Positions 1-10,155 of a DNA stretch of 10,155 nucleotides are shown here, in pieces; the first letter of the stretch is position 1, and each line of letters opens with the position of its first letter. Both the position numbers and the translations under genes were made by a program. The stretch covers positions 1-10,155 of the forward strand of contig PLCF01000067.1 of NCBI GenBank assembly GCA_003135555.1. Reading direction: 5' to 3'. The notes beneath the pieces are model-generated. The model ran no database searches and was not told the DNA's origin. It saw nothing but the letters and a program-made list of their open reading frames with translations. Origin of the DNA: Vulcanimicrobiota bacterium. Its GTDB lineage: Bacteria > Vulcanimicrobiota > Vulcanimicrobiia > Vulcanimicrobiales > Vulcanimicrobiaceae.

Positions 1-27
1 ATCATACGAACGCCCTTCGCCGTTACC

Positions 28-1056
28 GTGAACGAACTCTCGCAACTCCTCGAACTGCGCGGAACGCTGCGCATCGACTTCCTCGACAGCCCGGCGCTGC
101 GCGGCAACGCGCTTGGCGACCCGTCCCGCCGGCCGCTCGCGGTCTACACGCCGCCGGCGTACGACGCCCAGGGGTCGCGCCGCTATCCCGTGCTGTACTG
201 CTTGCACGGCTACACCGGGAACGTCGCCGCATTGGTCGGCGGGCGCGCGTGGGAGACCAACGTCGTCCAGTGGATCGACCGGTTGATCGCCGCCGAGCAG
301 ATGCCGCCCGCGATCCTGGCGATCGTCGACGGGTACACGCGGCTCGGCGGTTCGCAGTACGTCGACTCGATCCACAACGGGGACTACGCGACCTACGCCG
401 TCCGCGACGTCGTCGGCCACGTCGACGGAGCCTACCGAACGCTCGCGCGCGAGGGCGGGCGCGCGGTGTTCGGCAAGTCATCGGGCGGGTTCGGCGCGGT
501 GCACCTGTGCCTCGCCCATCCCGGAACGTTTGCGGCCTTCGCGTCGCACAGCGGCGACTCGTATTTCCGGTACTCGAACGTGCGCGGTTTCCCGACCGCG
601 CAGCGCGTGCTCGAAGAGTTCGGCTCGATCGAGAAGTTCGTGGTGGAGTTCGAGCGGCGGCCGAAACGGCCCAGCCATTTCTACGAGGCGATCGAGATGC
701 TCGGCTACGCCTCCGCGTACTCGCCGCGCGCCGCGGAGCGCTGGTCGATCGATCTGCCCTGGGACGACGCGACCGCCGAGCTGCGCGAAGACGTCTTCGC
801 GCGCTGGCTGGCCTTCGACCCGTGCGAACGCGTGGTCGCGGGCCGCGCCGCGCTCGAGCGGCTACGGCTGCGCTATCTCGATTGCGGGCGCAAGGACGAA
901 TACGCGCTCGACGTCGGAGCGCGCGTATTCGCCAAGCGCTGTCGGGAACTGGGGCTCGAAGTGCGCCATGAAGAGTTCGACGACGACCACCGCAATATCG
1001 GCTACCGCTACGAAGTCTCGCTACCGGCGCTCACCGCAGTCCTCGACAGCGCGTGA
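28..1056 (+). CDS. Putative esterase, alpha/beta-hydrolase fold (enterochelin-esterase-like / putative esterase family)
   Basis: 342 aa ORF from GTG. It has the 'VYTPPAY...RYPVLYCLHG' motif, nucleophile elbow GKSSGG, and candidate triad Asp (DCGRKDEY) and His (DDDH). Confidence 0.85.
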   Translation: MNELSQLLELRGTLRIDFLDSPALRGNALGDPSRRPLAVYTPPAYDAQGSRRYPVLYCLHGYTGNVAALVGGRAWETNVVQWIDRLIAAEQMPPAILAIVDGYTRLGGSQYVDSIHNGDYATYAVRDVVGHVDGAYRTLAREGGRAVFGKSSGGFGAVHLCLAHPGTFAAFASHSGDSYFRYSNVRGFPTAQRVLEEFGSIEKFVVEFERRPKRPSHFYEAIEMLGYASAYSPRAAERWSIDLPWDDATAELREDVFARWLAFDPCERVVAGRAALERLRLRYLDCGRKDEYALDVGARVFAKRCRELGLEVRHEEFDDDHRNIGYRYEVSLPALTAVLDSA

Positions 1057-1065
1057 GGGAGAGAC

Positions 1066-1581
1066 CTACTGAGGCTTCTGCTGCATCTGCGCTTTGTGTA
1101 GCTCGCGCATCTTTTCGCGGCTCACCGAGACTTGCAGCAAGAAACGTCCGGCATCGTTGCCGCCCGCTCCGGGACCACGAGGATGGTCGGCGTTCGGGCC
1201 ACCCGCCATCGCGCCGGGGCCGCCCGGGGCGCCGTCGGGGCGCGGCGGCATGTTGGCGCGCATAGTCGCCATCATCTTGTCGCGCTCGCCGAGCACGGCC
1301 TTGGATTCAGCCGGCGTGAGCGCGGCATCGACCTGCTGGGCCGCGCTGCGCAGGTCGGTGAGCTGACCGCCGTTGATCTGATCGACGATGGTCTGGACCT
1401 TGGCGCGAGTCGCCGGGCTGAGATCGTTGAAGGCGGCGGTTTTCGCGGCATCGTGCGCAGCTTGCATCTGGGCGCGAACTTCGGGCGGAGGACCATTTGG
1501 AGGCCCGCCTGCCTGTGCGAGGACGGAGAGCGGTAACCCGGCCGCAAGTACGGCGGCGAGCACCGGTAGCGATAATTTCAT
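1066..1581 (-). CDS. Secreted hypothetical protein, helical and Pro/Gly-rich (loosely Spy/CpxP-like)
   Basis: 171 aa with Sec signal peptide (MKLSLPVLAAVLAAGLPLSVLA|Q), helical segments such as 'QQVDAALTPAESKAVL', GP-rich linkers, and SD-like GGGTGGA upstream. Confidence 0.7.
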   Translation of the reverse strand: MKLSLPVLAAVLAAGLPLSVLAQAGGPPNGPPPEVRAQMQAAHDAAKTAAFNDLSPATRAKVQTIVDQINGGQLTDLRSAAQQVDAALTPAESKAVLGERDKMMATMRANMPPRPDGAPGGPGAMAGGPNADHPRGPGAGGNDAGRFLLQVSVSREKMRELHKAQMQQKPQ

Positions 1582-1614
1582 AGATCCACCCTATTGCATG
1601 GGCCCCCGGATTTG

Positions 1615-1644
1615 GCTGGGAAAGCGGTGAGGGCCGGGTGAGAA
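1615..1644 (-). promoter_or_regulatory. Three 11-bp-phased direct repeats upstream of the secreted-protein gene; candidate OmpR/PhoB-family operator
   Basis: On the + strand GGTGAG occurs at 1626-1631 and 1637-1642, with degenerate GCTGGG at 1615-1620. The period is exactly 11 bp. Confidence 0.35.
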
Positions 1645-1668
1645 GTTCGCGCGCTGGGCGTAAGCGCG

Positions 1669-2913
1669 TCAAGCGGTCGGCGCGCCCTGGCTCTGAGTCG
1701 CTGGGATCCGCTCCGGGTCCGGCACCTCCGCGCTCACGGCGGCCTCGGCTCGCGACGCCGGCGTGGTTCGCGCGTTGGTCGCGTCGAGCGCCTGACGCAG
1801 GTCGGCGATCAGATCGTGCGCGCTCTCAATCCCCACCGACAGCCGCAGCAAGCCCTCGGTGATGCCGCGCCGGTCGCGCTCGGCTTTGGGGATCGAACCG
1901 TGCGTCATGCGGGCGGGATGATTGATGAGCGACTCGACGCCACCCAAGCTCTCGGCGAGCGAGAACAGCTTGGTGGTGCGCGCGACGTCGAGCGCGCGCG
2001 ACTCCGGGCCGCGCAGCGTCATCGAGATGATCCCGCCGTTCCCGCGCATCTGCCGGCGCGCCAACTCGTGCTGCGGGTGGGATGCCAGGCCGGGATAGTA
2101 GACCCGCTCGACGTCGTCCCGCTCCTCGAGGAAGGTCGCGATCGCGTACGCGTTGCTGGCGTGTTCGCGCATCCGCAGCGCGAGGGTCTTGGCGCCGCGC
2201 GAGATGAGGAACGCTTCGAACGGGCTGAGCACCGCTCCCAGCGTTTTCTGCAGGAAGCGCAGCTGCTCGGCGATTTCCGCGTCGTCGGTCATCGCCGCGC
2301 CGCCCATCGCGTCGCTGTGGCCGCCGATGTATTTGGTCGTCGAGTGGATCACGATGTCGGCGCCCAGCGCGAGCGGCGACTGGAAGTAGGGCGTGCAAAA
2401 GGTGTTGTCGACGACCACGAGCTGACCGGCGGTCTTGAGCGCGACCATCGCGCGGATGTCGATCAAACGCAGCATCGGATTGGTCGGCGTCTCGATCCAG
2501 AACATCTTGGTGTTCGGTTGGATCGCCGCGCGCACCGCCGCCAGATCGGTCATGTCGACGAAGGTCGAACCCAGGCCGAAGCGCTCGAGCACCTTGGTGA
2601 AGAGCCGGTACGTTCCGCCGTACGTGTCGTCGCTGACGACGATGTGGTCGCCGGCGGAGAGCAAGCTGGTGATCGCGGTCTCGGCGCCGAGCCCGGACGC
2701 GAACGCCGCGCAGTAGCGCGCCTCCTCGAGCGCCGCGAGCTGGGTCTCGAGCGCGAGTCGGCTGGGGTTGGCCACCCGCGAGTAGTCAAAACCTTTGTGC
2801 TCGCCTACCGCCGACTGCGTAAACGTCGAAGTCGCGTAGATCGGAACGATGGTCGCTCCGGTGGCGGGATCGGGCTCCTGCCCGGCGTGGATGGCGCGCG
2901 TCGCGAAGTCCAT
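1669..2913 (-). CDS. Cystathionine gamma-lyase / gamma-synthase (Cys/Met metabolism PLP enzyme)
   Basis: Motifs 'FATRAIHAGQ', 'YSRVANP', 'ETPTNP', 'DNTF', 'HSTTKY' (PLP Lys), 'SLGGVES' and 'LRLSVGIE'. It starts 1 nt after the CBS stop, which favours gamma-lyase function. Confidence 0.92.
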   Translation of the reverse strand: MDFATRAIHAGQEPDPATGATIVPIYATSTFTQSAVGEHKGFDYSRVANPSRLALETQLAALEEARYCAAFASGLGAETAITSLLSAGDHIVVSDDTYGGTYRLFTKVLERFGLGSTFVDMTDLAAVRAAIQPNTKMFWIETPTNPMLRLIDIRAMVALKTAGQLVVVDNTFCTPYFQSPLALGADIVIHSTTKYIGGHSDAMGGAAMTDDAEIAEQLRFLQKTLGAVLSPFEAFLISRGAKTLALRMREHASNAYAIATFLEERDDVERVYYPGLASHPQHELARRQMRGNGGIISMTLRGPESRALDVARTTKLFSLAESLGGVESLINHPARMTHGSIPKAERDRRGITEGLLRLSVGIESAHDLIADLRQALDATNARTTPASRAEAAVSAEVPDPERIPATQSQGAPTA

Positions 2914-2914
2914 C

Positions 2915-4303
2915 TTACGCGCTCTGGGCCGAGAGGAACGAGATGATGTCCTGGCGCGTGACGACGCCGACGTGTTGACCGTCCTCGGTCACCACGATCG
3001 CCGAGTTCGCCATGGTGAGCAGTTTGTAGGCGACGGTCACTTCGACGTCGTGCTCGAGCGCCGGAAAGGCGCGGCCCATTACTTCGCCGACCGGTTTGTG
3101 GACGATGTCGGCGTGATCGAACACCGCCTGCATCACCGCGACGTCGTTGATCGAGCCGACGACGTCGTTGCCGCGGGTCACCGGCAGCTGCGAGATCGAG
3201 TAGGTTCGCAACAGCTCGAGCGCTTCTTTGACCGTTTGCACTTCGGTGACGGTGATGAGCGGCGGTAGCGGTCGCTTCGTGCGCAAGACGTCGCCGACGG
3301 TATCCTTGCGGCGGTCGTCCTCGAGGAAGCCGTTGGCGTGCATCCACTCGTCGTTGAAGATCTTCGACATGTAGCCGCGGCCTGAGTCGGGCATCACGAC
3401 CACCATGATCGCTTCGGGCGGCAACTCTTTGGCAACGCGGACCGCGGCTGCGACGGCCGTGCCCGACGAACCGCCGACGAGCAGTCCTTCCTCGCGCGTG
3501 ATGCGGCGCGCCATGAGAAAGCTCTCTTTGTCGGTGATGCGCAGGATGCGATCGATCACCCGCATGTCGACGGTCTGCGGGAGGTAGCTCATCCCGATAC
3601 CCTCGACTTTGTACGACTTGGGCGTGTCGCCGCTATAGATCGAGCCCTCCGGATCGGCGCCGACGACGACGATCGCGGGATTGCGCTCCTTGAGGTAGCG
3701 GGCGGTGCCCGAGATCGTCCCGCCGGTACCCATCCCGCTCACGAAGTGGGTGATCTTGCCGGCCGTCTGCTCCCAAATCTCCGGCCCGGTGGTCTTGTAG
3801 TGCGCGCCGGGATTCTGCGCGTTGTGCCACTGGTCGGGCTGGAGCGCGCCGGGGATCTCCGCGGTGAGTCGATTGGCGACGCCATAGTACGACTCCGGAG
3901 AGTCGTTGGGGACGTTGGTGGGCGTGATGACGACCTCGGCGCCGTACGCCCGGAGCAGGTCGATCTTCTCCTGGGCCATCTTGTCGGGCATCACGAGGAT
4001 GCAGCGGTAGCCGCGGATCGCGGCGGCCATCGCGAGGCCGGTTCCGGTGTTGCCCGAGGTCGCCTCGATGATCGTCGCGCCGGGCTTGAGGATACCGCGC
4101 GCTTCGGCGTCTTCGATCATCGCCACGGCCGGCCGGTCCTTGACCGAGCCGCCCGGGTTCACGTACTCCACTTTGGCCAAGACCAGACAGGTTGCGTTGT
4201 CGGTCACGCGATTTAGCTTGACGAGCGGGGTATGACCGACGGCATCGAGGGCGTTGCGGTAGTACGTCATCCCTTGCGTGGGACGGGGGTCGGTGAGGGC
4301 CAT
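2915..4303 (-). CDS. cbs: Cystathionine beta-synthase, heme-less, with C-terminal CBS-domain pair
   Basis: Motifs 'GHTPLVKL', 'NPGGSVKDR' (PLP Lys), 'TSGNTG', 'GMGTGGT' and 'PDSGRGYMSK', followed by a C-terminal Bateman module ('ISQLPV', 'VGVVTRQDII'). Confidence 0.93.
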   Translation of the reverse strand: MALTDPRPTQGMTYYRNALDAVGHTPLVKLNRVTDNATCLVLAKVEYVNPGGSVKDRPAVAMIEDAEARGILKPGATIIEATSGNTGTGLAMAAAIRGYRCILVMPDKMAQEKIDLLRAYGAEVVITPTNVPNDSPESYYGVANRLTAEIPGALQPDQWHNAQNPGAHYKTTGPEIWEQTAGKITHFVSGMGTGGTISGTARYLKERNPAIVVVGADPEGSIYSGDTPKSYKVEGIGMSYLPQTVDMRVIDRILRITDKESFLMARRITREEGLLVGGSSGTAVAAAVRVAKELPPEAIMVVVMPDSGRGYMSKIFNDEWMHANGFLEDDRRKDTVGDVLRTKRPLPPLITVTEVQTVKEALELLRTYSISQLPVTRGNDVVGSINDVAVMQAVFDHADIVHKPVGEVMGRAFPALEHDVEVTVAYKLLTMANSAIVVTEDGQHVGVVTRQDIISFLSAQSA

Positions 4304-4383
4304 GACCCAGTCGCGTTCCGCAACTCCGGAAGGGCAGCCTGCGTCGAAGGTAGTGCCACCAGTCGTACACGAGAGGAAGAGAA

Positions 4384-4734
4384 ATGCCCACCGATTTTAG
4401 GAACGGTGAGTTCCCGCGCCGGGGCCGTGACGGGCTCGACGGCTTTCTGTGGCTCGCGCGCGTGTTCGACAAGGCGCGGGCCGCCCGCGACGAGACGATC
4501 TTCGACTACATCTACCCCTGCCCGATGGACCGCGGCGTCTTCGACCGCTGGGGAATCACCACGCGCATGTTCGACGCGGCCCTCGATACGTGCCAGAGCG
4601 ACGACGAGATTCTGGCGTGGCTCAAGGCGCGCGTCCCCGACGCCCGCCGCGACGATGCGAACCGCTGGCTCCTCGACGAGAAGGCCGTCAACTTGGATCG
4701 CCAGGATGCCGAAGAAGGCGTCGTCCCGGTCTAG
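4384..4734 (+). CDS. DUF5069-like protein
   Basis: 116 aa. The pattern 'PR..R..LDG..WLAR..DKARA......DY.YPCPMD.......GI....F.......SDDEIL.W' matches my recollection of DUF5069. Purine-rich SD GAGAGGAAG lies upstream. Confidence 0.75.
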   Translation: MPTDFRNGEFPRRGRDGLDGFLWLARVFDKARAARDETIFDYIYPCPMDRGVFDRWGITTRMFDAALDTCQSDDEILAWLKARVPDARRDDANRWLLDEKAVNLDRQDAEEGVVPV

Positions 4735-4759
4735 GGTCTGCTAGCGGGTTCGCGTTGCG

Positions 4760-5116
4760 ATGAACGCGAACGCGGCTCGCGTGACCCGCGTGCGCCTCGC
4801 CCTGTTCGCGCTCCCCCTGCTGCTCGCGGCATGCGGCGGACCGCAGGTACCCCCCGCGCAGAACTATCCGACCATTCACGGCCGGGCCTTCGATGCGAGC
4901 ACGAACCAACCGGTCGCGGGCGCGCTCATCTCGGTCGACACGATCCTCACGGCGAGTACCGCGAGCGACGGGACCTACCGCATTACCAACATTCCGATCG
5001 GGACCTACACGTTCGCCGTGACCCCGCCCAACGGCTATAGCCAACCGCCCCCGTCCAGCGGCAGCCTCACCGCCGGCGAAAACGTCACGATCGACGTCCC
5101 GCTCACGCACCTATAA
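4760..5116 (+). CDS. Lipoprotein with carboxypeptidase-regulatory-like (prealbumin-type) domain
   Basis: Lipobox LAAC after a basic/hydrophobic leader, and 'TIHGRAFDASTNQPVAGALIS...TASDGTYRITNIPIGTYT'. An alternative GTG start at 4781 is possible. Confidence 0.8.
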   Translation: MNANAARVTRVRLALFALPLLLAACGGPQVPPAQNYPTIHGRAFDASTNQPVAGALISVDTILTASTASDGTYRITNIPIGTYTFAVTPPNGYSQPPPSSGSLTAGENVTIDVPLTHL

Positions 5117-5120
5117 CCGG

Positions 5121-6272
5121 TTGCGCGTCGTCGTCGCGCCCGACAAGTTCAAGGGCAGCCTCGACGCCGCCGGTGTCGCCGCGGCGCTGGCGGCGGGGGT
5201 CCGCGACGTGATCGCCGACGCGGTGATCGTGCTGGTCCCGATGGCCGACGGCGGCGACGGCACCGCCGACGCATTCTTGGCCGACGGCGCCGTGGCGCGA
5301 TGCGTGACCGTCAGCGGCCCGCTGGGCGATCCGGTCGACGCCCGTTACGCGCGCGACGGCGACGTGGCGATCGTCGAGATGGCGGCCGCGTCGGGCTTGG
5401 CGCTGCTGGGCCGGCGGCGCGAACCGCGGCGCGCGACGACGCGCGGTACCGGCGAACTGCTGCGCGACGCGCTCGACGGCGGCACGCGGCGCATCGTGCT
5501 CGGCATCGGCGGCAGCGCGACGACCGATGGCGGCGCCGGCGCGTTGGCTGCGCTGGGCGCGCGGTTTCTCGACGCCGCCGGGGCCGAGCTCGAGCCGTTG
5601 CCCGAAGCGCTCGCGGCGCTGGCGCGCATCGACCTCGAGGGTCTCGATGCGCGCCTCGCCCCTTCGACAGGCTCAGGGGTGGATCTAGCGATCGCGTGCG
5701 ACGTCGACAATCCGCTGCTGGGGGCGGCCGGTGCCGCGGCCGTCTACGGTCCGCAAAAGGGCGCCACGCCCGCCGACGTCGCGTTCCTGGACGGCGTTCT
5801 GGCCCGGCTGGCCGATGCGATGACCGGGGCGACCGGGCGCGATCTGCGCGACCTGCCCGGCGCCGGCGCCGCCGGCGGACTGGGCTGGGCGCTGGCCAGC
5901 GCGTGCGGGGCGCGCCTCGAACGGGGCGTCGCGTTGGTCGCCCAGGTGCGCGGACTGCACCACGCGCTCGACGGCGCTGACTGGTGCTTCACCGGCGAGG
6001 GCCGCATCGATGCGCAGACCCTGCGCGGCAAGGTCGTCGACGGGGTCGCCGCCGCGGCGCATGCAGCCGGCGTCCCGGTGGTGGCCTTCGGCGGCAGCGT
6101 CGACCCCGCCGTCGAGCCGGCCCTGCGCGCCCGCGGCGTGTGGTGTTTCCCGATCACCCCGGGCCCGCAGTCGCTCGACGAAGCGATGCGCGAGGCGGCC
6201 GCGAACCTGCGCGCAGCCGCCGCGCGCGTCGCGGCGTTGATCCAAACGCCGCGAAACGACGACGGAGGCTGA
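5121..6272 (+). CDS. glxK: Glycerate kinase (GlxK/GarK family)
   Basis: TTG start; motifs 'APDKFKGSL', 'PMADGGDGT', 'IVEMAAASG', 'GIGGSATTDGG', 'ACDVDNPL', 'YGPQKGA', 'GAGAAGG' and 'TGEGRIDAQT'. Confidence 0.95.
   Translation: MRVVVAPDKFKGSLDAAGVAAALAAGVRDVIADAVIVLVPMADGGDGTADAFLADGAVARCVTVSGPLGDPVDARYARDGDVAIVEMAAASGLALLGRRREPRRATTRGTGELLRDALDGGTRRIVLGIGGSATTDGGAGALAALGARFLDAAGAELEPLPEALAALARIDLEGLDARLAPSTGSGVDLAIACDVDNPLLGAAGAAAVYGPQKGATPADVAFLDGVLARLADAMTGATGRDLRDLPGAGAAGGLGWALASACGARLERGVALVAQVRGLHHALDGADWCFTGEGRIDAQTLRGKVVDGVAAAAHAAGVPVVAFGGSVDPAVEPALRARGVWCFPITPGPQSLDEAMREAAANLRAAAARVAALIQTPRNDDGG
5659..5679. repeat. Short palindromic REP/RPE-like element inside glxK
   Basis: CCCCTTCGACAGGCTCAGGGG. 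It shares the core CTTCGACmrGCTC with the copies at 9994-10020 and 10110-10128. Confidence 0.75.
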
Positions 6273-6276
6273 CGCC

Positions 6277-6711
6277 ATGCTCGCATTGTTCCTGGGCGCC
6301 GCGCTGCTCGCAACGGCCTCGCTCGACGCCGGACACGCGGCGGTGCTCGCCGTGGTCTCGCAGGACCCGATGGCCGGCGCCTGCGCGCCGGGCGAGCTGC
6401 GCCAGGCCGTCGTCGACACGCGGATCAGAACGATCGGCCACCTTGGCGCTGACTCCGTCGTGCTGTTCGCGGTGCATGCGCGCTGCATCTGCGGCGAGCA
6501 CAACTGTCAGCAATACGTGATCCGCTACGGCACCGGAGCGCCGCGTGTGCTGCTCGTCGGGCTGGGGTGGCGCGCCGACCCGCGGCCGGCGAAGCCGCTG
6601 CCGCAGATCGTGGTGCGGTCGCACGACAGCGCCGCGGTCAGCGACGTGATTACCTACGCGTACCGCGGCGGAAAATACGTCGAGATACGCAGTCAACGCG
6701 TCAGGAACTGA
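6277..6711 (+). CDS. Secreted hypothetical protein with a CxCGxxNC motif
   Basis: 144 aa with a hydrophobic signal peptide, GGAGG SD at 6264-6268, and four Cys including CICGEHNC. Confidence 0.7.
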   Translation: MLALFLGAALLATASLDAGHAAVLAVVSQDPMAGACAPGELRQAVVDTRIRTIGHLGADSVVLFAVHARCICGEHNCQQYVIRYGTGAPRVLLVGLGWRADPRPAKPLPQIVVRSHDSAAVSDVITYAYRGGKYVEIRSQRVRN

Positions 6712-6712
6712 A

Positions 6713-8056
6713 TCACGCGGTCGGGGCGGGCGTCGCGCTCTGACGGAAGCGCACGTACGACGCCCGCTCGGCGACGGCTTCGTCGATGATGCCGACGACG
6801 ACCGCGGCGAGCCGGTCGCTGTCGTGGCGCACGGTCTGCGTTTCGCTGATCACGTTGGCGCGCACGAGCTTCACGCCCAGACCGCGTAGCTGCTCTTCGT
6901 CGACCGCGACCGGGAACTGGCCCTCTTCGGCGTACTCGTCGCGCAGCTTGTGCGGGAGCTCGTCGTTGACGACCGCGATCTCGCACACGTTCGCACCGGC
7001 GCCGCGCAGCAGCGCGCGGATGTGGGCCGACGCGGTGTACCCGTCGGTTTCGCCGGGTTGGGTCATCACGTTGCAGACGTAAATCTTCACCCCCGCCGCG
7101 GCTTCGATCTCACGGCCGATCCGGTCGACGAGCAGATTCGGCATGATCGAGGTGTAGAGCGAACCGGGGCCGAGCACGATCGCGTCGGCCTCGCGAATCG
7201 CGGTGATGACTTCGTCGAGCGGCGGAGCATGCGGGGGGTCGAGGTACACTTCCTCGATCGTTCCACGCGCGTGGGTGATCTGCGATTCGCCCTCGACGAC
7301 GGTTCCGTCGCTCATCTTAGCGCACAAGCGCGCCACGGCCAGCGTCGAGGGCAGCACGCGCCCTTTGACGTTGAGCACGCGGCTCGACACCTTGATGGCC
7401 TCGTCGAAATTTCCGGTGATGCCGGTCATGGCGGCCAGGAAGAGGTTCCCGAAGGAGTGTCCGCTGAGCCCTTCCCCTTCGGAGAACCGATAGCGGAAAA
7501 GCTCGGTCACCAGCGCCTCGTCGTCGGCGAGCGCGACGAGGCAGTTGCGGATGTCGCCCGGCGGCAGCACGCCGAGTTCTTTTTGCAGGCGGCCCGACGA
7601 GCCGCCGTCATCGCTCACGGTGACGACCGCCGAGAGCTTGGTGGTGAACTTTTTGAGCCCGCGCAGCATCGTCGACAAGCCGGTGCCGCCGCCGACGACC
7701 ACGATCTTGTAGCCGCGCTCGAGGCGCCGTCCGCGGATCGCGCCGATCACGTCGTCGGTACCGTACGGCGCGACCGCGGTCACGATCGCGTTGAGCCAGC
7801 GCCAGATCCCCAGCGCGACGAGCAGCGCACCCAGGGCCATGAAGATCCACGAGAGATACCCGGGCGGAAAGAACTCCGAGACGAGCCAGTCGACGAACTC
7901 GTTGACGCGCAGCGTCGTGCCTTCGTCGGTGAGGTAGCGCGAAACGCCGTTGACGAAAAGCGTCGCACCCAGCGCCGCCAGCAAGAGCCAGCGCTTTACG
8001 CCGAGCCCGGGCTGCAACCAGCGCGCGATGTTGATCGACCGCGCGAAGCGCCTCAT
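6713..8056 (-). CDS. yvcK: YvcK/UPF0052 (GlmR-like gluconeogenesis/cell-wall factor) with N-terminal transmembrane segments
   Basis: Start reassigned to ATG at 8056, overlapping the rapZ stop (ATGA). Motifs 'PGLGVKRW', 'GGGTGLSTMLRGLK', 'DDGGSSGRL', 'PPGDIRNCL', 'GHSFGNL', 'GPGSLYTS', 'CNVMTQPGET' and 'RHD'. Confidence 0.93.
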   Translation of the reverse strand: MRRFARSINIARWLQPGLGVKRWLLLAALGATLFVNGVSRYLTDEGTTLRVNEFVDWLVSEFFPPGYLSWIFMALGALLVALGIWRWLNAIVTAVAPYGTDDVIGAIRGRRLERGYKIVVVGGGTGLSTMLRGLKKFTTKLSAVVTVSDDGGSSGRLQKELGVLPPGDIRNCLVALADDEALVTELFRYRFSEGEGLSGHSFGNLFLAAMTGITGNFDEAIKVSSRVLNVKGRVLPSTLAVARLCAKMSDGTVVEGESQITHARGTIEEVYLDPPHAPPLDEVITAIREADAIVLGPGSLYTSIMPNLLVDRIGREIEAAAGVKIYVCNVMTQPGETDGYTASAHIRALLRGAGANVCEIAVVNDELPHKLRDEYAEEGQFPVAVDEEQLRGLGVKLVRANVISETQTVRHDSDRLAAVVVGIIDEAVAERASYVRFRQSATPAPTA

Positions 8057-8907
8057 CGGTTCACGTCGCGCGCTTCGAAGGTCGCCGGCGCAGCGCTGGT
8101 CTCGGCGAGATGCTGTTGGAGCCGGCGCCCGAGATACACGCTGCGGTGCCGTCCGCCGGTGCAGCCGATCGCAATCGTCACTTGCGACTTCCCCTCGTGC
8201 TCGTAGCGCGGGATCAAGAAGTCGAGCAGCGGGAACAAGCGCGCGACGAAGTCCTCGGTATCGGGGATCGCTTCGAGGTAGGCGGCGACAGCGGCGTCGG
8301 CGCCGGTGAGCTCGCGCAGTCCTTCGACGTAGTTGGGATTGGGAAGAAAGCGTACGTCGAAGACCAGATCGGCATCGAGCGGGACGCCGTACTTGAAGCC
8401 GAAGGCGACGACGGAAACCCGCAACCGGCGGGCGTCGGCGCCCGCAAAGGTCGTGCCGATGCGGTCCTTGAGCTGACCCAGCGTGAGGCGCGTCGTGTCC
8501 CACACGAACCCGGCACGGTCGCGCAATGCGGCGAGCGAGGCGCGCTCTGCCGCGATCGCCTCGGCGAGGCCGGTCCCGGTTTGCCCGTACGGATGGCGGC
8601 GGCGCGTCTCGCTGTAGCGCCTGATCAGCGTCTCGTCCTCGGCGTCGAGGAACAGGACGTCGGTGCGAAAGCCGGCCGCTTCCAACTCGTCGAGCGCCGC
8701 GACGGCCTCGCCGAACGGGCCCAACGTGCGCACGTCGAGCGCCAGCGCGGCGTTCACGTACCCCGCCTCTGCGGCGAGCGTGACGAAGGAACGTGCCAGG
8801 ACCGGCGGCGCGTTATCGAGACAGGCGAACCCAAAGTCTTCCAGCGATTTCATTGCCTGGCTCTTGCCTGCACCCGAGAGCCCCGTTACGATGACGAGAC
8901 GGCGCAT
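8053..8907 (-). CDS. rapZ: RNase adapter / P-loop nucleotide-binding protein RapZ (YvcJ)
   Basis: Start at ATG 8907 (MRRLVIVTGLSGAGKS, Walker A). Motifs 'RRYSETRRRHP', 'FGFKYG', 'DVRFLPNP' and 'GCTGGRHRSV'; 284 aa. Confidence 0.95.
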   Translation of the reverse strand: MRRLVIVTGLSGAGKSQAMKSLEDFGFACLDNAPPVLARSFVTLAAEAGYVNAALALDVRTLGPFGEAVAALDELEAAGFRTDVLFLDAEDETLIRRYSETRRRHPYGQTGTGLAEAIAAERASLAALRDRAGFVWDTTRLTLGQLKDRIGTTFAGADARRLRVSVVAFGFKYGVPLDADLVFDVRFLPNPNYVEGLRELTGADAAVAAYLEAIPDTEDFVARLFPLLDFLIPRYEHEGKSQVTIAIGCTGGRHRSVYLGRRLQQHLAETSAAPATFEARDVNR

Positions 8908-9285
8908 ATGAAGCTCTTTTCGGCCGAGAAAGCCAACGCCCTCATCCCGGTGCTGGAGCCCCTGCTCGAGGAGCTCTGGGAGAAGCGGCGCGACCTGGCC
9001 ATCCGCTTGCTCGAGTCCGACCCGGCCCTGCGCACGGGCCGTTCCGACCCTGCGCGCGAGCGCCGGCGCTCGCGCACCTTCACCGAGCTTAAAGCCGAGA
9101 TCGTGCGGCTGATCAACCGCATCGAAGCGCACGGCTGCGTTGTAAAGGACCTCGATCTGGGCCTGCTCGACTTCCCGTCGATGCGCGAAGGCAGGCCGGT
9201 GTATCTCTGCTGGAAAGCGGGCGAGGTCGAGCTGACGCACTGGCACGGCACCGACGAGTCCTTCGCCGACCGTAAGGCGCTATAA
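8908..9285 (+). CDS. DUF2203-like protein
   Basis: Start at ATG 8908 (MKLFSAEKANALIP). C-terminal signature 'GCVVKDLDLGLLDFPS.REGRPVYLCWKAGE..LTHWH....FADRK'; 125 aa. Confidence 0.85.
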   Translation: MKLFSAEKANALIPVLEPLLEELWEKRRDLAIRLLESDPALRTGRSDPARERRRSRTFTELKAEIVRLINRIEAHGCVVKDLDLGLLDFPSMREGRPVYLCWKAGEVELTHWHGTDESFADRKAL

Positions 9286-9291
9286 TGCAGC

Positions 9292-9309
9292 GCCGCTCCG
9301 AAGGGCGGC
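9292..9309. terminator. GC hairpin between convergent genes (possible terminator or stabilising stem)
   Basis: GCCGCTC-CGAA-GGGCGGC forms a 7-bp stem. There is no U-tract on either side. Confidence 0.3.
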
Positions 9310-9328
9310 AGGGTGGCGCGGGCGAGCT

Positions 9329-9736
9329 CTATGCCGGGACGGCGGTGGCGTCGACCTTGATGAAGTCCTCGGCCAGACCTTGCAGGCGGACCTCGCCGAA
9401 CACCACGGTATAGGCGCCGGCCGCGAGGTCGGTGACCTTTCCGAACTCCTGAACGCTGGCGAGCTGCGGGATCTTCGCGCGAATCTCGTCGGGCAGCTTG
9501 ACCGTGTCGCCGACCTCGAGCGCAGGCTGCTCGAACAGCTTCTCGAGGTCCGCCATGAGCAGGCCCAGCGGGATGCCGTAGCCTTCGCTGACCTGCTCGA
9601 TCGTCTCGGTCTCGCTGATCGAACAGTGCGAGCAGCCGCCGAGGTGGAACCGCGCGAAGACGCGCTTGGCCCCGGCATGTGTCTTGAACGCCTGCTCGAC
9701 CGTTTGGTCCTTGGTGAAGTGGGCCACGGTGGACAT
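9329..9736 (-). CDS. DUF1858-like (CxxC redox/disulfide-associated) protein with C-terminal SH3/KOW-like domain
   Basis: Start at ATG 9736 (or 9739) after SD GGGAG. N-domain 'FTKDQTVEQAF..H..AKRVFARFHLGGCSHC.ISETETIEQ....YGI....LMADL'; C-domain 'LEVGDTVKL...GKV...YTVVFG'. Confidence 0.7.
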   Translation of the reverse strand: MSTVAHFTKDQTVEQAFKTHAGAKRVFARFHLGGCSHCSISETETIEQVSEGYGIPLGLLMADLEKLFEQPALEVGDTVKLPDEIRAKIPQLASVQEFGKVTDLAAGAYTVVFGEVRLQGLAEDFIKVDATAVPA

Positions 9737-9993
9737 CATTCTCCCAAACCGGGAAGCGACCCCGCCGGTTGCGGCGCGACGCCGCGCGCCCACGACGCCG
9801 CATCGATGGTGCGCCGCAGCGTCTCGATCGGTGATGTATGTGTTTCGGGAGAAGGCGCGGAGGGCGCCTGTACGCCGGATTCTGTCAAAGCCTCCGAAGA
9901 GGCCGTGGTCGTCATCTCTCTGGGGCCGGCCTCACGGCCGACCTCGGTGCGACGTTTGCTCGTTCCGCCGGGCCGGCGGCTCCGACCGACTCG

Positions 9994-10020
9994 GTCATCC
10001 CGAGCCGGTCGAAGAAATGA
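9994..10020. repeat. REP/RPE-like element inside the rnpB P15-P17 domain
   Basis: GTCATCCCGAGCCGGTCGAAGAAATGA with TCAT/ATGA inverted ends. Its orientation is opposite to the other two copies. Confidence 0.7.
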
Positions 10021-10109
10021 GCAGTCTTGCTCCAGGTGGGGTTTACCCGCGCCCGCGTCACCGCGGAGCGCCGTGCGCTCTTACCGCACGATTTCACCCT
10101 TACCGCCGC

Positions 10110-10128
10110 GCCTTCGACAAGCTCCGGC
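10110..10128. repeat. REP/RPE-like element at the tip of rnpB helix P12
   Basis: GCCTTCGACAAGCTCCGGC. CCTTCGACAAGCTCCGG differs from the glxK copy CCTTCGACAGGCTCAGG at 2 of 17 positions. Confidence 0.75.
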
Positions 10129-10155
10129 ACGGCGGCGGTATGTTTCTGTGGCACT

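Follow-up and report, generated by a model that had tools for sequence, protein, structure and literature searches.

Miniature hairpin repeats inside protein genes and the RNase P RNA gene of a soil Vulcanimicrobiota bacterium, with a small GIY-YIG nuclease as their candidate partner in related genomes

Three short palindromic repeats in a 10,155-nucleotide stretch of DNA from a Vulcanimicrobiota bacterium (contig PLCF01000067.1, positions 1 to 10,155, hereafter the window) belong to a dispersed family of miniature hairpin repeats, one of them inserted in a glycerate kinase gene and two in the gene for RNase P RNA. In related genomes the family is associated with a small gene for a GIY-YIG nuclease that resembles Ssn and is bracketed by inverted repeat units; this cassette is probably the autonomous form of the family, with the nuclease driving its spread. 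The window lies on contig C44 of genome G000, a soil bacterium with an assembly of 3.57 Mb in 98 contigs, a G+C content of 67.9% and a completeness of 84%. Other G-numbers denote the related genomes that were compared, and C-numbers denote contigs. The features concerned are the following.

5121-6272, plus strand: glycerate kinase gene, host of copy 1 (Pfam Gly_kinase, E 1.3e-126, residues 3-374)
5659-5679, plus strand: copy 1, with the exact core CCTTCGACAGGCTCAGG at 5661-5677 and a CCCC/GGGG stem
9855-10155, minus strand: RNase P RNA, class A (Rfam RF00010), the 5' part of which runs beyond the window to C44:10241
9980-10015, minus strand: copy 2, with its core at 9999-10015 and a degenerate second arm in inverted orientation, located at the tip of an additional hairpin between P16 and P17
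10102-10136, minus strand: helix P12 with copy 3, core at 10111-10127 (plus strand), reported by cmscan as an insertion in the P12 hairpin

An earlier reading of the window, made from the letters alone (the sequence-only reading), had listed three copies, all inside functional genes, and had proposed a genome-wide family of short non-autonomous palindromic units, to be checked against a composition-based expectation. All three copies were recovered, and the counts lie far above expectation. The pattern CTTCGACMRGCTC matches the window at 5662-5674 (plus strand), 10002-10014 (minus strand) and 10112-10124 (plus strand), compared to a mean of 0.10 matches in 200 dinucleotide-preserving shuffles, none of which reached three. 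Across G000, CTTCGACNNGCTC was observed 102 times against 7-18 expected under Markov models of orders 1, 3 and 5, and the exact 17-mer CCTTCGACNNGCTCAGG occurred 39 times where the same models predict 0.02-0.03. With 0, 1 and 2 mismatches there were 39, 15 and 34 copies of the 17-mer, versus 0, 1 and 19 in the reversed genome, reversed genomes or patterns being our controls. The glycerate kinase copy fits the 17-mer exactly, the P12 copy with one mismatch and the P16/P17 copy with two, yet the latter runs on into the ATGAC tail that is typical of the family. Tandem arrays of 3-4 units with a spacing of 27-29 nt were seen at G000:C62:25961-26050.

The conserved part of the unit is a 13-nt loop that reads TTCGAC-NN-GCTCA on one strand and TGAGC-YY-GTCGAA on the other, with two purines at the NN position in 37 of the 39 G000 units (TTCGAC-RR-GCTCA); in other genomes this position is occupied by a further G+C-rich inner hairpin. 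The loop is closed by a stem of at least 3 bp with a co-varying sequence, and (G/A)TGACA often comes next: TGAC is present within 12 nt on the 3' side in 27 of the 54 G000 copies with at most one mismatch. The complementarity of the flanking triplets identifies the unit as a hairpin whose loop is conserved while its stem co-varies. Fully complementary triplets surround 39 of the 69 TTCGACNNGCTCA units in G000 (CCC/GGG 24 times, TCC/GGA 13 times), compared to none of 9 units of this type in the reversed genome, and at the 80 metagenome loci introduced below 99 of 114 units have complementary triplets, of 13 kinds. At 30 loci of relatives, positions 3 and -3 are occupied by T/A 143 times, by C/G 23 times and by other combinations 9 times. 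The hairpin suggested in the sequence-only reading, with tandem GA/GA pairs as a putative detail, is thus strongly supported by covariation of its closing stem and only weakly by folding energy, since single units (the glycerate kinase copy and cassette-end units), folded with ViennaRNA as RNA or as DNA, were no more stable than shuffled sequences (z -0.1 to -0.6).

The RNase P RNA gene belongs to RF00010, with a score of 126.2 bits when truncated at the window end and 203.8 bits at full length (C44:9855-10241; cut-off 100); its conserved core is intact, and insertions occur only in P12 and in the hairpin between P16 and P17. Helices were named from the cmscan structure line and the standard nomenclature. 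This is the only RNase P RNA match in G000, and the gene for the protein subunit, rnpA, is present as well. Copy 2 and its inverted degenerate partner form a perfect 15-bp hairpin with the loop GAUGA (-29.1 kcal/mol, z -6.62), and in P12 an 11-bp native stem carries copy 3 as a 13-nt terminal loop (-23.7 kcal/mol, z -2.70), with the GAGC..GUCGAA strand in the RNA. Just past the window, positions 10156-10157 of C44 read NN, and about 13 nt present in all relatives are missing from the helix ahead of the conserved GUGCCACAGA; the same region is also affected in G002. This is probably a masked stretch or scaffold gap and not biology, and it accounts for the lower score of the G000 RNA compared to the 230-250 bits in relatives.

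We aligned RNase P RNA from 27 genomes (17 genus members plus 4 genomes from a second and 6 from a third family, the last including the unpublished G030), leaving out the fragments in G005 and G028 and counting as a copy any match to the 17-mer with at most two mismatches. Ten of the 17 genus genomes have copies in this RNA, 14 in all, compared to none of the 10 genomes outside the genus and none in reversed controls. They occupy three sites.

P12 tip: plus strand in G002, G003, G004, G007 and G012; minus strand in G000 and G009
Extra hairpin between P16 and P17: plus strand in G000, G004 and G014; minus strand in G002, G010 and G013
Hairpin at the P19 position: plus strand in none; minus strand in G010

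Occupancy goes with genomic copy number, as copies were found in 10 of the 12 genomes with at least 21 exact cores (the measure used for all per-genome core counts) and in none of the 5 with at most 7. At the same sites empty relatives have plain GCAA or UUCG-type hairpins; P12 of G001 and G018, for example, ends in a GCAA tetraloop. G009 carries a full copy in P12 at the same place and in the same orientation as G000, and in G009 the unit stands beside an intact GCAA loop. As for transcription, RNA runs contained at most 0.30 of the sampled words, and contigs of four metatranscriptomes covered conserved RNase P cores of relatives only, leaving the parts that bear the element, 9987-10008 and 10119 onward, uncovered. 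One RNA-library contig from run X5, with a loose end at window position 9980, passes from the RNase P core into sequence one letter off the repeat core, so that a repeat-bearing RNase P gene of a relative may be represented in the metatranscriptome, or may be there as DNA carry-over.

These data bear on the simplest alternative, namely chance similarity, or native RNase P helix sequence that merely resembles the repeat. A single unit is indeed thermodynamically undistinguished and the two RNase P copies have mismatches, but the window holds three matches where 0.10 are expected, copy 2 bears the family tail, exact 17-mers occur at the same RNase P helices in G007, G009 and G010, and relatives with few or no genomic copies show plain tetraloop hairpins there. 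Together, the window shuffles, the genome-wide counts and the comparison across relatives refute this explanation, to which we assign next to no probability.

For protein genes we analyzed the 54 G000 copies with at most one mismatch, using a crude codon-usage caller of open reading frames (ORFs) and stop-to-stop frames. Thirty copies lie inside a high-scoring frame, and 20 such frames were scanned with Pfam. The interior of coding sequence holds 11-12 of the 54 copies, and 11 copies in 10 genes lie within a domain match or are matched on both sides.

Host genes 1 to 5: Zn-dependent alcohol dehydrogenase, Mfd, PheS, a DUF4438 protein and ATP-dependent DNA ligase
Host genes 6 and 7: S9 peptidase and a RecN/SMC-like protein
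Host genes 8 to 10: a 2-oxoglutarate dehydrogenase E1/E2 fusion (two copies), prephenate dehydratase and glycerate kinase

Both units of the E1/E2 fusion (G000:C79:40352-40630) are located in flexible linkers, and RNase E/G has one copy in its C-terminal tail. Four copies lie 7-13 nt ahead of a stop codon, in genes for a pyruvate oxidoreductase-family protein, HemA, a DUF1028 protein and NuoJ, and another precedes the stop of a TPR regulator by 65 nt; five near N-termini are ambiguous. When 20 intergenic copies, each with about 250 nt of flanking sequence, were scanned with Rfam, no family was returned at E <= 0.1. When classified, the copies thus include coding, intergenic and RNase P RNA members, and those in real protein genes and at RNase P tips agree with the proposal that the element is tolerated in protein loops and RNA helix tips.

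Comparison with orthologues revealed filled and empty sites. Copy 1 is translated in frame as PSTGSG, a net gain of 15 nt relative to empty glycerate kinase orthologues. The gene was present in 36 of the 40 other genus genomes searched, and in a codon alignment the site is empty in 22 of 28 genus orthologues. At the codon where copy 1 lies, G046 carries a related element (+21 nt), and G014, G037, G047 and G001 have unrecognizable inserts at the site. In Mfd, the 15-nt insert CTTCGACAGGCTCAG, read as LRQAQ, lies between C and G of the ancestral sequence and is found in G000 alone of 28 sequences that cover the site, the other 27 being empty. In PheS (G000:C22:1753-2961), recognizable copies occur in 4 of 25 genus genomes, namely G000, G041 (two copies), G261 and G007; the element has apparently decayed in G015 and G034, and a short empty loop is present in 13 of the 25 and in both outgroups. 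The PheS site is a loop framed by two Cys pairs in the class II core domain. Its length, counted from the CPxC to the CRTC motif, ranges from 3 to about 17 residues among genus members. Since several lineages took up the repeat there, it is a hot spot in a catalytic core domain. LRQAQ is the read-out in both Mfd and PheS and PSTGSG that in glycerate kinase, which means that the unit is translated in at least two frames. A quick tree of Mfd proteins (SH-aLRT support only; 25 of 29 rows, the partial G003, G013, G018 and G261 being dropped) grouped G000 with G037 (94), G009 with G046 (99) and G007 with G041 (100), and G037 is empty at both the Mfd and the PheS site. A nucleotide tree from the RNase P flanks was dropped, as synteny is not conserved (identity 0.39-0.51 upstream and 0.41-0.84 downstream). 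Presence/absence polymorphism, which the sequence-only reading had named as a check, was therefore found in glycerate kinase, Mfd, PheS and RNase P RNA, and the description of a tolerated, non-autonomous, genome-wide element with clear empty sites is supported.

Of 301 genomes of the phylum surveyed, 206 belong to the window's family; 149 of these contain the exact core, and copy number in the family runs from 0 to 348, the unpublished G276 and G278 being part of this tally. Within the genus it occurs in 15 of 19 genomes, and close relatives range from 0 to 269 cores. Elsewhere in the phylum the core is close to absent: it was found in none of 3 genomes of a second family and as one single hit in 22 of a third, and two further genomes had 10 and 5. 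The control pattern, the core read backwards, gave 0-1 hits in the same survey. In species genomes, among the matches listed, the same core was found in many phyla, often clustered and with related tails.

The sequence-only reading had placed the mobilizer outside the window, and neither the window nor the G000 assembly contains a candidate. A search for GIY-YIG genes flanked by clusters of copies, the second kind of gene that this reading had suggested, did yield one in relatives: four of five high-copy relatives have an extra GIY-YIG (PF01541) frame, about 100-128 aa long, with inverted units on either side in the layout TGTCAYCCTGAGC..GTCGAAGGG - ORF - CCCTTCGAC..GCTCAGGGTGACA. In G007 and G280 the downstream unit contributes the C-terminal PSTSSG residues of the ORF and its TGA stop codon. 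The proteins of G007 (100 aa) and G280 are single-domain, with PF01541 as their only match (E 4.6e-13 and 1.2e-16), and no NCBIfam model matched the cassette nuclease. Among solved structures, the UPF0213 proteins 1zg2 (profile E 2.4e-19) and 1ywl (8.7e-17) are the nearest, and Y9, Y19, R29, H33 and E67 are invariant in an alignment of 24 homologues.

Presence of the gene is associated with copy number. A strong homologue, defined by E <= 1e-18 with the G007 protein as query, was found in 19 of 22 genomes with at least 100 cores versus 12 of 42 with none. Within the genus, all 8 high-core genomes have the gene compared to none of 3 core-free genomes; two of these eight genes are frameshifted, and that of G002 is a remnant (E 2e-11) that does not count among the 19. 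The cassette ORF is frameshifted in its C-terminal third in G046 (L194, ~1456-1839, minus strand) and G041 (L195, ~1456-1794, minus strand), and only 47 codons are left in G002. As these genomes are rich in copies, many copies outlast decay of the gene. Within 400 nt of the gene, 18 of the 19 high-copy loci carry cores on both flanks, those upstream being on the minus strand and those downstream on the plus strand, and three UvrC-type or other GIY-YIG loci had no flanking cores. Homologues in core-free genomes are flanked by variants of the same architecture, for example with a CCC..GGG stem or an inner hairpin, and where the hairpin variant is a different one, the units flanking the gene are of that variant too. 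Units also form tandem arrays next to the gene, for example beside the G041 cassette. The cassette is flipped between the same neighbours in G007/G041 versus G009/G046, in G119/G285 versus G217 and in G170 versus G150/G226/G194, the outcome that recombination between inverted terminal units would give; many other cassette loci (among L197-L226) have no neighbour in common. Finally, a profile of the 24 homologues recovered 80 metagenome loci with 32-68% G+C, of which 60 have the hairpin architecture on at least one side and 31 on both, versus none in reversed controls.

The Ssn-like nuclease is accordingly our best candidate partner of the repeats, although it is absent from the incomplete G000 assembly, so that the roughly 40-70 copies in G000 are either non-autonomous or orphaned. 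Ssn is a 94-aa single-domain GIY-YIG nuclease of CDD family cd10448 that binds its NTS hairpin as single-stranded DNA only and cuts a few nt upstream; in many bacteria its gene is flanked by NTS/SRM hairpin repeats, and 2% of the NTS copies lie inside genes (Chenal et al. 2025, PMC11893778). The authors raise NTS-ssnA-NTS as an element resembling an insertion sequence, which was untested there, and no insertion events are shown (PMC11893778). Our system shares with Ssn a single-domain GIY-YIG protein of ~94-100 aa, a gene flanked on both sides by inverted hairpin repeats, orientation of the repeats by a conserved GTCA-type tag adjoining the stem, hundreds of dispersed copies in some genomes with none in close relatives, and a repeat variant that shifts along with the gene. 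It differs in that the conserved part is the 13-nt loop and not the stem, that 11-12 of 54 copies are coding-interior and 2 more lie in RNase P RNA compared to 2% for NTS, and that the cassette protein has its nearest solved structures among the UPF0213 proteins. The repeat strings were absent from the 12 of 14 supplementary files of Chenal et al. that were searched, and the genome table contains no Vulcanimicrobium or Eremiobacter names. Searches of the literature by repeat strings and peptide read-outs, with bioRxiv supplements outside their scope, gave primer or chance matches only, and in a search on GIY-YIG proteins with mobile hairpin or palindromic repeats flanking the gene, that paper was the sole relevant one found.

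Other short repeats show partial resemblance. Rickettsia palindromic elements (RPEs), to which the sequence-only reading had likened the repeat, are palindromic and inserted in frame in unrelated housekeeping genes, where they are translated as extra peptides (PMC10969869). The analogy stands for behaviour, that is, insertion in frame and in RNA with translation into the host protein, and fails for size and family: RPEs are ~150 bp long and found in Rickettsia, whereas the present units are 15-27 nt, linked to a GIY-YIG gene and read in at least two frames. Repetitive extragenic palindromic (REP) sequences and their doublets (REPINs) are likewise very short dispersed palindromes with inverted doublets and extremely variable copy number, but here many copies are intragenic, the partner gene is of GIY-YIG type, and REP-associated tyrosine transposases (RAYTs) were absent from six genomes searched. 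Miniature inverted-repeat transposable elements (MITEs) have terminal inverted repeats and target-site duplications, whereas each unit here consists of one hairpin (15-27 nt) and no duplication is visible at the three protein sites. [quoted passage not shown] They, too, are a genome-wide short repeat in a peripheral helix of an essential ribozyme gene, varying between related species; here, in contrast, single or doublet hairpin units occupy three helices in both orientations.

By analogy with Ssn, we infer that the nuclease would bind the hairpin extruded in single-stranded DNA and nick beside it, and that the nick would seed the copying of hairpin units into new sites. Only harmless insertions would survive selection: those that add 15 or 21 nt in frame to a protein loop or linker, those at the end of a gene, and those that merely lengthen or cap a peripheral RNase P helix at its tip. 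Several observations weigh against such nuclease-driven spread. The sole PF01541 match in G000 lies in a 663-aa frame that is probably UvrC, and tblastn of 30 homologues against this 84% complete assembly gave a best E of 0.038. G180, with 348 cores, has no nuclease match and G191 only a weak one, and as 12 of the 42 core-free genomes own the gene together with variant hairpins, the correlation is imperfect; moreover, related genomes are non-independent samples. None of the 54 G000 copies, taken with their flanks on both strands, fits the published degenerate SRM consensus. No target-site duplication is visible at the filled and empty sites of glycerate kinase, Mfd and PheS, and in G010 the RNase P unit substitutes the tip of a hairpin while the outer stem is kept. 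With net inserts of 15 nt in addition, this makes ordinary cut-and-paste transposition unlikely. The RNase P insertions may be retained in the mature RNA.

Three other explanations for the spread were weighed. The sequence-only reading had proposed that a RAYT, an HUH tyrosine transposase akin to those of IS200/IS605, is encoded elsewhere and mobilizes them as REP/REPIN-type units. They are indeed short dispersed palindromes with extremely variable copy number, and REPIN-like inverted doublets occur in the P16/P17 hairpin of RNase P and in the arrays beside the G041 cassette, but Y1_Tnp (PF01797) was found in none of the six genomes searched (G000 plus five relatives that hold 183-348 cores, four of these relatives being 93% complete or better), while the same search was positive in six control genomes, and the gene that the units bracket encodes a GIY-YIG nuclease. 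We therefore regard RAYT mobilization as very unlikely. Alternatively, the hairpins might serve the host, for example as terminators or as recognition sites for a domesticated single-strand nuclease policing incoming or replicating DNA, and have spread by selection and ordinary recombination. In line with this, the Ssn/NTS pair modulates transformation in Neisseria (PMC11893778), copies stand at the ends of four genes, 7-13 nt from the stop, and half of the 54 copies carry the oriented TGAC tail. Yet copies lie within at least 10 protein genes in different frames and RNase P RNA in both orientations, core numbers run from 0 to 269 among close relatives, and the nuclease gene has decayed in G046 and G041 and is a remnant in G002, so that a host function seems improbable, though worth keeping in mind.

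It is also conceivable, but rather improbable, that the nuclease gene merely stands by or attracts insertions as a favoured landing site, and that the units multiply by replication slippage, template switching at hairpins or gene conversion with no dedicated enzyme. The tandem arrays that adjoin the gene, the tip swap with retention of the native stem in G010, the missing target-site duplications and the many copies in G000 and G180, where no nuclease gene was detected, would all fit. What speaks against a bystander is that 18 of 19 loci show a precise, oriented bracket, that a change of hairpin variant is accompanied by the same change in the units flanking the gene and that the pairing recurs in unrelated metagenome contigs. 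The cassette as autonomous form, with the nuclease as driver, thus remains the probable explanation.

Elsewhere in the window, in the region 6713-9803, a CofD/YvcK-type gene and a RapZ gene, both on the minus strand, form an apparent operon. A DUF2203 match on the plus strand, at about 8911-9285, overlaps long alternative frames on the opposite strand, and a 305-aa frame at 8886-9803 (minus strand) has no family match and may be spurious.

The mobility of Ssn hairpin repeats was left open by the paper describing them (PMC11893778). In the present lineage, three protein genes and three RNase P helices come in naturally filled and naturally empty forms, in species with 0-269 genomic copies, and the question is now directly testable with one small protein and short oligonucleotides. 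The insertions also show what load is tolerable to an essential ribozyme and to the core domain of an essential tRNA synthetase, and for annotators they explain recurrent peptides (LRQAQ, PSTGSG) and spurious small ORFs in metagenome genomes of high G+C content. More tentatively, and with considerable doubt on our part, the TGAGC-NN-GTCGAA-loop hairpin could be what a clade of tiny GIY-YIG nucleases, spread across the bacteria, recognizes, and these nucleases could form a genuinely mobile element with a non-autonomous unit down to 15 nt; one possible route is that the nuclease would cut tandem arrays to unit-length single strands, which would be built into hairpin-prone sites during replication. 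If this were true, the 15-nt unit would be the smallest insertion unit known, and protein loops and ribozyme helices would be continually remodelled in many phyla.

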